A DNA stretch of 27,037 bases from a virus. Its lineage: Duplodnaviria > Caudoviricetes. Positions 10,747-14,898 of this stretch are shown here, piece by piece; position 1 is the first letter of the stretch, and each line of letters begins with the position of its first letter. A model generated the notes under the pieces. That model worked only from the letters and a program-made list of their open reading frames with translations. It was not told where the DNA came from and searched no databases. The stretch is taken from positions 1-27,037 of IMG/VR virus record IMGVR_UViG_3300012664_000222. One strand, 5' to 3'. The position numbers were made by a program, and so were the translations under genes.

Positions 10747-11280
10747 TTAAGCGTCAGCGAAGGGGGTGGCAACAGAGCCGGAGCCCAGCAACACGCCAGT
10801 GACCATGTATTTGTTGGCAGACAGCACCGTCACGGTGATAGTCGAACCAGCGATACCGCCAGTGGTGGAGCCATCCAAGTTGATGACGTCGTTGGACGAA
10901 GCGGGGGCGAAGCCAGCCGTTGCGCCGGAGCTGTCGGTGTCAACCATCAGCACGGAGCCGACAAACTTGTCAGTGCCGTCAGTCTTGATGGCCAAAGCTG
11001 AAGCGGTGGTCTCAACCACAAACGTGTAGGTCGTGCCCACGTTGTTCACGGTGTTGGGGTCTTGGCCGGGGCCGGAAGTCACAGGGTTTGGTGTGACGTT
11101 GATGGTTGGCAAGGTGATGACCAAAGTGGCATCGTTCGTGCGGATCGTCTTGCCAGCGTACGTGGCGACGTCCAGAGTCACGGTGTTGGTGCCGTTTGCC
11201 AAGTTGACAACGGTGGCGGGGCCTTGAGAGATGAAGCCAGCCAACGAGCGAACTGGGCCTTGGAAGGTAGTCTGAGCCAT
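10747..11280 (-). CDS. Putative capsid-associated fibre/decoration protein (177 aa; MAQTTFQGPVRS...)
   Basis: Directly downstream of the MCP; T/G/V-rich beta composition; GAGG RBS. Confidence 0.6.
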   Translation of the reverse strand: MAQTTFQGPVRSLAGFISQGPATVVNLANGTNTVTLDVATYAGKTIRTNDATLVITLPTINVTPNPVTSGPGQDPNTVNNVGTTYTFVVETTASALAIKTDGTDKFVGSVLMVDTDSSGATAGFAPASSNDVINLDGSTTGGIAGSTITVTVLSANKYMVTGVLLGSGSVATPFADA

Positions 11281-11366
11281 GATGATTCCTCACATGCGAG
11301 TTGAGGTGCATCTGTCTGCATGTCGTCGGCCCGGAGCCGTCAGATACACCGGAAAAGTCCGGGAGT
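11281..11366 (-). ncRNA. Candidate structured cis-regulatory leader RNA
   Basis: 10-bp helix GGUGUAUCUG/CAGAUGCACC plus two 6-bp complementary pairs that could form pseudoknots, and an SD-sequestering alternative. Confidence 0.45.
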
Positions 11367-11372
11367 GGGTGC

Positions 11373-11401
11373 AATATACACCAAAAGAAAAAGGGGCACA
11401 A
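11373..11401 (-). promoter_or_regulatory. Sigma70-like promoter TTGTGC-N17-TATATT overlapping the MCP terminator
   Basis: Exact 17-nt spacer; points into the structured leader and 10747..11280. Confidence 0.45.
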
Positions 11402-11413
11402 GGCCCCTTTTTC
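11383..11413 (-). terminator. Rho-independent (potentially bidirectional) terminator after the MCP gene
   Basis: GAAAAAGGGGC-CTTGT-GCCCCTTTTTC-TTTT. Confidence 0.8.
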
Positions 11414-11444: not shown

Positions 11445-12374
11445 TTAGGAGCCCGAAGAGCCCCAGATACCCAATGGATCAGACCAGCCGAACGAATAAC
11501 GCTCGCGGGCCTTGTAACGGACGTTGCCGGTGTCGAAGTCGCCGTCCATGGAAGTGGACAGAGCGGTACGCTCGAAGTGCTTCAAGCCGTTAGGCACGTC
11601 TGTGGTCAGGAACCAAGCGTTGCTGTCGGTCAAGAAGTTGTTGACGGTGTAGCCACCAGACACGGTGCCCATCTGCTTCAACGCGTTGATGTCGTTGTCA
11701 GCAGTGCCAACACGCAACTCGGTGTCAAGCAGACGCTTGGCAACGAACATCAGTGCTGGAGGGATCACAAGTTTGACTGGCTTGGCAGCGATCAACAGAC
11801 CGCGTTCGTCCACCCAAGCAGCGATCTGGATGGTGGCGTTTTCCAACGAAGTTTCGTTGAGGTCAACACCGGTGGTGGGGCTGTTGTAGTTAACGCCGCC
11901 GCCGACCAGAGGGTGGCCAACGCGAGTGCCGGAGCTGTTGTTGCCGAACAGAGACACGCCGTCGCCGCCGAGAGCGGAGCCAGCAAAGCCAGTGTTCAAC
12001 ACCGAGGCAGCTTTGACCTGCTTGGTGTAAGCCATACCACGGGCCAGAGCCTTGGTGTAGCGGGCAGACAGACTGTCGTACAGGTTGTCTTCCACAGCTT
12101 CTTCAGTGATGGAGAAGCCCAGAGCGATGGTTTCGTGGGTGTAGCGAGCAGTGAAGGCTTCCTGCGCGTTGTCGTAAGCGATGGCGGAGCCTTCGTTCTT
12201 GACAGGAGCAGCGCCAAAACCGGCCAGCTTGGTTTCTTCCTCGAACGAACGCTCAGATTTCTCTGTTTCGTACAGTTCTTTGTGTTGCTCGCCGTAACGT
12301 GCGTATTCCAGACCGAACAAAGCGTTCAGACCGGGGAGCAGCTCTTTGAGCAGTTGTGCGCGTGAAATTGCCAT
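11445..12374 (-). CDS. Major capsid protein (Mu GpT-like family, HK97 fold expected), 309 aa
   Basis: MAISRAQLLKELLPGLNALFG start, GDFDTGN.RYKARERYSFGWSDP end; AAGGAG RBS; followed by a terminator. Confidence 0.88.
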   Translation of the reverse strand: MAISRAQLLKELLPGLNALFGLEYARYGEQHKELYETEKSERSFEEETKLAGFGAAPVKNEGSAIAYDNAQEAFTARYTHETIALGFSITEEAVEDNLYDSLSARYTKALARGMAYTKQVKAASVLNTGFAGSALGGDGVSLFGNNSSGTRVGHPLVGGGVNYNSPTTGVDLNETSLENATIQIAAWVDERGLLIAAKPVKLVIPPALMFVAKRLLDTELRVGTADNDINALKQMGTVSGGYTVNNFLTDSNAWFLTTDVPNGLKHFERTALSTSMDGDFDTGNVRYKARERYSFGWSDPLGIWGSSGS

Positions 12375-14463: not shown

Positions 14464-14898
14464 TTATGCGCGGGTGTAGCCGCGTGGGTCTTGCACAACA
14501 CACTCAATCTGGTCGTCGTTCAGCACCCTGAACTCTTTACCAAACACCTTGAAACGCGTACCGGTGTAGGTACGCACGAGGACAAAATCACCTTCCTTGC
14601 ACCATGCACCTGATGGGAACTTGGCGGTGTCTTTGTACGCGTCTGGTCCGGCCCGAAGCACAAATAGCACCGTGGTGGCGTGCTCTTCTGCTTTCATGGT
14701 CGCGGCATCTCGAACGAGGTCGAGGCTCGTACCGGCGATCTTTTCATCGACCTCGGGCACGACGCACAGCAGCTTGTATCCGGTCGGGATAGGCAGCGCC
14801 GATGCTTTGGTTTCGTTGTCAGCCTCGGCCTCGGGGGCGTCGATGGGCTGGATGTGCTTTGGCAGGCTGATGCCCGGAGGCAGAATGATTTCACTCAT
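14464..14898 (-). CDS. groES: GroES/Cpn10-like co-chaperonin (144 aa)
   Basis: P.GYKLL, VLRAGP, CKEGDFVLV..Y.GT, EFRVLNDDQIECVV match the GroES pattern. Confidence 0.8.
   Translation of the reverse strand: MSEIILPPGISLPKHIQPIDAPEAEADNETKASALPIPTGYKLLCVVPEVDEKIAGTSLDLVRDAATMKAEEHATTVLFVLRAGPDAYKDTAKFPSGAWCKEGDFVLVRTYTGTRFKVFGKEFRVLNDDQIECVVQDPRGYTRA

Follow-up and report, generated by a model that had tools for sequence, protein, structure and literature searches.

The window, by which we mean the whole stretch of 27,037 nt that was analysed, is a 27-kb linear virus record estimated to be about 44% complete. According to Pfam and PHROG its minus strand carries the terminase, the portal, GroES, a Mu-gpT-like major capsid protein, adaptors and fibres; the GroES-like co-chaperonin gene (14464-14898, minus strand) sits between the portal and capsid modules, as in HTVC023P-type phages. 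In its capsid protein the window shares 62% identity with the pelagiphages HTVC023P and HTVC027P and 54% with the Roseobacter phages CRP-901 and CRP-902, and the gene order flanking the capsid gene is the same. PDB sequence searches with the capsid protein and with the protein encoded downstream of it gave no significant match. The capsid stop codon is separated by 164 nt from an ORF of 177 aa (10747-11280), and this gap contains an 85-base element on the minus strand, for which we predict five helices that make up a three-way junction and two pseudoknots. The features are as follows.

11445..12374, minus strand: major capsid protein gene, upstream of the RNA (Pfam PF25209, E 3.5e-13; PF10124 Mu-like gpT, E 8.1e-5; phrog_371 major head protein)
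11387..11413, minus strand: predicted intrinsic-terminator-like hairpin ending the capsid transcript (terminator scan and recurrence in relatives)
11373..11401, minus strand: sigma-70-like promoter candidate, -35 at 11396-11401, 17-nt spacer, -10 at 11373-11378 (8 of 12 consensus matches)
11358..11363, minus strand: 5' strand of P1 (pseudoknot 1), pairing with 11330-11335 (swapped-partner control and covariation)
11341..11350, minus strand: 5' strand of P2, pairing with 11305-11314 (double changes at 10 of 10 pairs; 9 of 9 tested pairs significant)
11340 and 11337-11339/11327-11329, minus strand: a junction A, then P3, whose loop holds the 3' strand of P1 at 11330-11335 (middle pair of P3 significant)
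11326, 11325/11316, 11318-11323 and 11315, minus strand: junction A, lone C-G pair, 5' strand of P4, junction A (pair tally over 209 junctions)
11305..11314, minus strand: 3' strand of P2 (covariation)
11292-11297, minus strand: 3' strand of P4 (pseudoknot 2), in the loop of the probable helix P5 (11298-11300/11289-11291); 5 of 6 P4 pairs significant
11288..11291, minus strand: Shine-Dalgarno (SD) GAGG (from the sequence)
10747..11280, minus strand: predicted capsid decoration/spike protein, 177 aa, N-terminal arm and beta-sandwich knob (structure model and fold match)

The first-pass annotation had described a 10-bp helix enclosing two segments, each with a perfect 6-nt partner outside it. 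Our computed coordinates agree with it entirely, both for the helix (11341-11350 with 11305-11314, one U-G pair) and for the outside partners (11330-11335 with 11358-11363, and 11318-11323 with 11292-11297, the latter directly 5' of the SD). Among 5000 dinucleotide shuffles, none contained a 10-bp helix with two perfect 6-nt partners outside it; a helix with one partner was seen in 4 and a helix alone in 57. The nested fold energy is ordinary (z = -0.22), which is to be expected where pseudoknots cannot be scored. To the first reading we add a conserved P3 of 3 bp, the lone C-G pair and a probable P5 stem of 3 bp that holds the SD, which in the window forms the 3' side of that stem. P2 ends 24 nt upstream of the AUG.

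Relatives were collected from IMG/VR without use of the RNA, 80 loci via the downstream protein and 80 via the capsid protein; a further 240 loci came from two pattern scans and carry a bias at the fixed letters of the pattern. Repeated leaders were counted once, and 26 of the 160 protein-selected loci were left unscored, 3 because they lie close to a contig end and 23 because no ORF fits the arm pattern. This gave 107 distinct leaders in front of an arm-bearing ORF. A gapless score is passed by 95 of them, one of which (L043) is false on reading, as the motif is lacking; the 12 that fail it do carry the motif on reading, with a bulge or a shifted junction. The motif is carried by 106 of the 107 leaders on reading and by 94 of the 107 by script, and each of nine junction positions is kept in 92 to 95 of the 95 leaders.

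For the covariation analysis, 57 non-redundant window-type RNAs (below 90% identity) were aligned with MAFFT on sequence alone, after L310, L320, L321 and L396 had been reassigned from the window class to the start-codon class; L263 was left out of a further step. In this alignment 84.2% of cells pair, as against 61.5% in shuffled alignments, and 0 of 500 shuffles reach that value; slid controls give at most 44% pairing. Double changes are found at all 10 pairs of P2 and at the middle pair of P3 (UA 37, AU 14, GC 4, CG 2). Because MAFFT misregisters the 5' strand of P1 and the 3' strand of P4, these were re-anchored by best complement. Such a procedure leans towards pairing, so the swapped-partner control matters here: P1 with at least 5 Watson-Crick pairs occurs in 99% of 83 long-form RNAs, compared with 32% after swapping of partners and 3% after shuffling, and P4 in 66% of the 83, compared with 22%. 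Under a null that keeps the tree, with junction-anchored strands, 17 of 24 pairs pass E 0.05, namely 9 of 9 tested pairs of P2, the middle pair of P3, 2 of the 4 variable pairs of P1 and 5 of the 6 pairs of P4. Hence all three helices of the first reading covary. The same test found no significant tertiary covariation outside the helices (best E 1.4).

The C that follows the second junction A pairs with the G that precedes the third, and the core is therefore a three-way junction with one A per strand. Over 209 junctions this lone pair is C-G in 206 (a number inflated by the pattern-selected loci), U-A in 3 and mismatched in none. Once it is recognised, the three As are the only invariant unpaired bases, and there is no invariant unpaired G, C or U. 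P5 has at least 3 pairs in 41 of the 57 RNAs (swapped partners: mean 25%, maximum 40%). Its pairs, at E 0.1 to 1.6, do not reach significance once the tree is taken into account, and we therefore regard it as probable rather than shown; if it does form, P4 would be a loop-loop kiss. There is one subfamily where the SD lies 3' of P5. Linker lengths are narrow, 15 to 17 nt in 51 of 57.

Two competing hairpins had also been pointed out in the first-pass annotation. The hairpin at the 5' end, CCGGA-CUUU-UCCGG, can form in 24 of the 57 window-type RNAs (swapped-partner control: mean 18%, maximum 28%) and in 0 of the 26 RNAs of a second class; it is thus a trait of a subfamily, and these counts rule it out as a family-wide switch. 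The hairpin CCUCA/UGAGG, said to hide the SD, is present in the nested minimum-energy fold of the window, whereas the relatives favour another register, in which CUC/GAG closes the hexamer 11292-11297. Among the relatives we found no family-wide alternative structure that could serve as an ON state.

Wherever the motif occurs, P4 is in the initiation region. In the window class its 5' start is 14 to 24 nt before the AUG, while in the other two classes it falls on the AUG and codon 2; the third class (26 RNAs) combines P1 and a long P2 with a P4 paired on the AUG. At the level of sequence comparison, we consider the P1 to P4 pairings, the fixed link to the decoration gene and the location of P4 in the initiation region to be demonstrated.

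It had been stated in the first-pass annotation that the element could not be assigned to a known family. It is true that Rfam 15 has no match on the motif, either at the gathering score or at E 10, where the weak matches all rest on the terminator. Nor does the covariance model of RF03012 (cut-off 49 bits) find anything in the window, be it with the gathering threshold or with E 10, and it scores above the cut-off in 0 of 40 related records. However, the junction core and the gene slot are common to the window and to the orphan Mu-gpT-DE motif, RF03012, which reportedly stems from the Weinberg 2017 survey and is typed 'Gene; sRNA' in Rfam. Part of the RF03012 consensus was exposed by weak matches, and a pattern made from it fetched real members, 13 of 14 tested loci scoring above the RF03012 cut-off. 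The likeness consists of a core of P2, A, C-N-G stem, AC, 7-9 nt, GA and P2, of the slot, which follows the Mu-gpT-like capsid gene and a -10-like box, and of a downstream ORF with the same N-terminal arm, 8 protein body families being common to both. There are also differences. In RF03012, P2 is short and the SD serves as its 3' strand, P3 is a long hairpin, P1 is missing and P4 lies on the AUG and codon 2. In window-type RNAs, P2 has 10 bp, P3 has 3 bp with the P1 pseudoknot as its cap, and P4, together with P5, is located upstream of the SD. The window shows the junction core A-CNG...CNG-AC...GA and the gene slot, and it does not show the outer helix on the SD with a long inner hairpin. The two forms, long and compact, were not found together in any one of the genomes searched. 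Models of one form score weakly on the other: our window-class model, R1, correctly locates 3 of 13 RF03012 loci, with E 0.2 to 0.6, and does not find the compact RNAs of CRP-901 and CRP-902. For this reason it is the core and slot in common, and not a cross-model score, on which we base homology to RF03012, and the window is filed as a variant of RF03012, not as a member. Judged by its sequence, the long form is a larger, uncatalogued variant of the orphan Mu-gpT-DE motif.

The comparison also adds to what is catalogued for RF03012 itself. In RF03012-type RNAs the loop that corresponds to P4 pairs with the AUG and codon 2, and 65 of 66 such pairings end at +4 to +6. A G-C/C-G swap in it (47 and 17 of 65) tracks Ala versus Gly at residue 2, with E 0.03 and 4 independent double changes. 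The Rfam model stops at the AUG, and its structure line lacks this start-codon pseudoknot. Given where P4 is placed in each of the three classes, all three architectures cover the initiation site. As a separate observation, in 41 of 65 RNAs the outer helix of RF03012 is longer by three pairs, which lie beyond an SD adenine that bulges out (L414:3496-3560 and other members of the A2 alignment). The only paper on Mu-gpT-DE found in our literature search is that on CaCoFold, where the portion that treats RF03012 reports two extra covariations, of loop and non-Watson-Crick types, and not new pseudoknots (PMC7657543). No description of the long form was found; the Weinberg 2017 supplement and the Fremin 2023 alignments, which lay outside the search, may contain one. 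The term 'gpT' does not occur in the accessible portion of the Weinberg 2017 main text, and 6 of the candidates tabulated by Fremin 2023 overlap RF03012.

The element, described in the first-pass annotation as lying 'downstream of the capsid gene', does not belong to that gene; it forms the 5' leader of the gene that follows, and a promoter-like site of its own precedes it. Among 115 protein-selected loci there are 22 where the capsid gene is followed by other ORFs before the RNA is reached, and in these the RNA keeps its place at the decoration gene. A strict -35/-10 pattern is present in 13 of these 22, and on reading all of them have a TTG hexamer that precedes a TA hexamer by 16 to 17 nt. 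Since the RNA and the promoter-like site travel with the downstream gene, the element is a 5' leader. The inserted ORFs (L004, L006, L053, L119 and others) include GIY-YIG endonucleases, over the cut-off in L053 and weak in L006, as well as several ORFs without an assignment, and the stretch that links the capsid stop codon to the leader has the look of a hotspot for insertions.

In the window the terminator scan finds 2 terminator-like sites where 1.9 are expected, so that for the hairpin at the capsid gene it is position and recurrence that carry weight, not the count. The -35-like hexamer 11396-11401 is in the loop of this hairpin, hence terminator and promoter overlap. The promoter scan made no call at 11373..11401 because only 8 of 12 consensus positions match. 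The -10-like box ends 9 nt before P1, from which we infer a transcription start at about 11366, with P1 at about +1. For the three classes in turn, 37 of 55, 18 of 25 and 59 of 65 RNAs have a TAnnnT box ahead of the first helix, as raw, uncontrolled counts, and in most window-type and compact RNAs the first helix follows the -10-like box by some 6 to 9 nt. A -35 box is not clearly enriched overall (10 versus 6 of 55). The terminator scan finds no terminator between the RNA and the downstream ORF. All 23 RNA runs listed consist of assembled contigs, the best RNA-labelled run having 0.22 of the words; at 80% likeness, contigs from four RNA runs include pieces of relatives that lie over the leader in some cases, and they carry no starts, ends or levels.

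The window-class model finds exactly one copy in 19 of the 26 genomes searched; three genomes that carry the compact form give no match to it. The long form is present in the cultured pelagiphage HTVC023P, in DSL-LC04 and in a Manatee Spring genome, and it is present in divergent form in HTVC027P (E about 1e-4) and in 023Pt_psg01 (relaxed scan only). In both of the latter (L410:3963-4062 and L413 before 4029, respectively) P3 is shortened, and in 023Pt_psg01 the lone pair is U-A. CRP-901 and CRP-902 have the compact form. The core is common to phages of SAR11, Roseobacter and freshwater hosts. The motif was not found in Pag-Yong1, Alcaligenes phage QDWS535 or Caulobacter phage RW; given that relatives of the Pag-Yong1 type, with a capsid protein 71% identical, do without it, the motif is dispensable. 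The Pag-Yong1 leader (L411:3420-3525) has a strong nested fold of -47.5 kcal/mol and, by eye, an 8-bp complement to the SD region; it is possibly a replacement control element. In GTDB, where 38 of 64 parts were scanned with the pattern of one subfamily, there were 120 matches, 6 of them with a full P2 and all 6 before the phage arm, and no cellular copy or context was seen among the 120. Two true copies, with the decoration gene (L487 and L494), are on contigs binned in freshwater betaproteobacterial MAGs, one of them Fluviibacter; other copies are binned in Verrucomicrobia and Acidibacter, which makes the assignment of hosts unsafe.

The downstream protein has no family in Pfam or PHROG. Its structure model has a pLDDT of 80.5, low for the first 20 residues, and among the fold matches the Pa223 capsid spike 9NY6_C comes first (Z 10.3, with an rmsd of 2.2 over 98 residues; Foldseek E 9e-5), with which tailspike and baseplate domains tie within 1 Z. 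The top folds are spike and tailspike domains. The likeness to Pa223 gp52 is confined to the C-terminal knob, where 13% of residues are identical, and the window protein lacks the triple beta-helix. In Pa223 the N-terminal segment by itself anchors the spike to the capsid, according to the relevant portion of the report (10.1101/2025.06.11.659172). The gene in the same slot is annotated as a cement protein in DSL-LC04 and as a minor capsid protein in Pag-Yong1, and HTVC023P gp41, which is 49% identical to the window protein, is preceded by a full long-form RNA. The 220 complete downstream ORFs range in length from 62 to 301 aa; they make up 27 body families and have only the arm in common; 8 of the 27 families occur behind both long and compact RNAs, and RNAs 80 to 91% identical to that of the window precede unrelated protein bodies. 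The constant arm is roughly 16 residues long and not arginine-rich. A Met stands exactly 7 residues before a conserved Gly in 220 of 220 ORFs, where the pattern allowed 5 to 8, although the conservation of the arm is partly by construction, since the ORFs were picked by an arm pattern. By analogy the arm would bind the capsid. A complex prediction with three capsid subunits and a 40-residue arm scored 0.00, which speaks neither for nor against this.

Given that the doubly knotted pairing is kept across related aquatic phages and that the fold reaches up to the ribosome-binding site, the leader likely controls the amount of protein made. The first-pass annotation had proposed a translational switch or protein-binding RNA; the double pseudoknot is real and its position would allow it to influence how the virion gene behind it is translated, and to this extent the proposal holds. 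That the leader switches, or that it sets the stoichiometry of the virion protein, remains a suggestion drawn from the sequence. The explanation we prefer, with moderate confidence, is that of a protein-gated translational operator, which would shut the ribosome-binding site when unassembled decoration protein binds. Transcription would start at the adjacent promoter, with P1 beginning at about +1; P4 would then dock onto the P5 hairpin that holds the SD, and initiation would be blocked in this OFF state. A protein would gate the docking of P4, and the nature of this trigger is the weakest part of the scheme. Since the protein bodies vary freely and only the arm is constant, the ligand should be the arm or else a conserved capsid or scaffold protein. 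The arm would be free to bind the leader once the capsid sites are filled. In our opinion the decoration arm is a possible trigger, to be held tentatively, and another phage protein is somewhat less probable than that. It is a speculative thought, and on balance an unlikely one, that the three-way junction mimics the capsid docking site, so that the 16-residue arm binds its own leader when capsid sites run out. Several points go against an operator: P5, which buries the SD in the window, fails the tree-aware test; the downstream protein has a predicted spike/knob fold and not a known RNA-binding one, and its arm is not arginine-rich; no family-wide ON structure was found among the relatives; the motif is dispensable in relatives such as Pag-Yong1; and the -35 box is not clearly enriched.

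A simpler possibility is that no ligand is needed, the fold merely setting a fixed low rate of initiation and pairing the first bases of the message as a shield for the 5' end. The short distance from the -10-like box to the first helix in most window-type and compact RNAs suits such a damper, the three As left as the only invariant unpaired bases are typical of architecture, and Pag-Yong1, without the motif, still has a strongly folded leader. On the other hand, a plain hairpin would suffice for this purpose. Nine near-invariant junction bases, kept at 92 to 95 of 95 and across otherwise different architectures, are not obviously needed by a fixed damper, and neither are linkers as tight as 15 to 17 nt in 51 of 57. 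We consider it rather unlikely, though the most serious competitor of the operator. A riboswitch, in which a small molecule or ion at the junction docks P4 over the ribosome-binding site, seems to us improbable. The size, the own promoter, the two pseudoknots and the final helix at the SD do resemble translational riboswitches such as SAM-II, preQ1 and cobalamin class II, and the core is common to phages of quite different hosts. But a metabolite pocket usually has an invariant unpaired G, C or U, of which there is none here, the regulated gene is structural, and the 6 GTDB matches with a full P2 (of 120, in 38 of 64 parts) all precede the same phage arm. Moreover, riboswitches are described as rare in phage genomes in the pertinent portion of PMC5473149. 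No known aptamer class is matched in Rfam 15. With a structural gene, no cellular copy in the GTDB parts scanned and a 5' competing hairpin that is not family-wide, we would no longer call the element 'riboswitch-like'.

Two further explanations take the RNA to act in its own right. The three-way junction and complementary loops recall phi29 pRNA, which has both, and one might imagine a packaging-RNA-like structural RNA whose loops pair between molecules and which acts in head assembly; its own promoter-like site beside the capsid gene would be in line with that. However, no terminator separates the RNA from the ORF, P4 uses the start codon itself in two classes, and the fixed linker lengths fit pairing inside one molecule, which makes this explanation quite improbable. 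Hardly credible, in our view, is a self-cleaving ribozyme that processes read-through capsid transcripts. HDV-like ribozymes are also small double-pseudoknot RNAs that begin at a 5' helix. They have an invariant catalytic C in the strand before the 3' side of P2, whereas among our 57 RNAs the base just ahead of the conserved GA is an A in 51 and a C in 6; their P1 3' strand follows P3, whereas here it is inside the P3 loop. Besides, there is no Rfam ribozyme match even at E 10, and the promoter-like site already provides a 5' end.

A protein-gated operator of the kind we prefer would have known parallels. Feedback by surplus product through a pseudoknot is described for T4 gene 32 (in the section devoted to it in PMC3014915) and for rpsO (uS15) and the alpha operon (uS4) (in the corresponding section of PMC10931766). 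As in the window, the pseudoknotted leader is at or over the initiation site, and in those three systems the product is needed in fixed proportion to a partner. They differ in that their repressors are nucleic-acid-binding proteins, while the window product is a predicted capsid spike, and there is no homology of sequence or structure between the leaders. The P22 scaffolding protein, whose autoregulation was reportedly described by Wyckoff and Casjens in 1985, offers a likeness of another sort, being a phage head protein that is reported to limit its own synthesis when unassembled, though of another protein class. We know of no RNA structure of the window kind for it. In the view of a 2010 review, as far as its section on gene 32 goes, that pseudoknot is possibly the only case of viral autoregulation through a pseudoknot (PMC3014915); a capsid-protein case would extend it beyond gene 32. 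HTVC023P-type phages, which carry the family, are reported, in the part of the source that concerns them, to be the most abundant known marine viral group (10.1101/2019.12.14.876532). If true, an arm-binding junction would be a peptide-sensing translational switch in one of the most abundant phage groups of oceans and lakes, and it would give Mu-gpT-DE a function.

The orphan 'sRNA' RF03012 becomes a testable cis-regulatory family with three interchangeable architectures, and a start-codon pseudoknot is revealed that the Rfam structure line lacks. Both forms have cultured carriers (HTVC023P and DSL-LC04 for the long form, CRP-901 and CRP-902 for the compact one), and probing and reporter tests are therefore direct. 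As a minor observation, a short helix on the SD of the second post-capsid gene at L161:1501-1525 has a weak RF03012 score of 19.9 bits; it may be an unrelated SD-sequestering hairpin.
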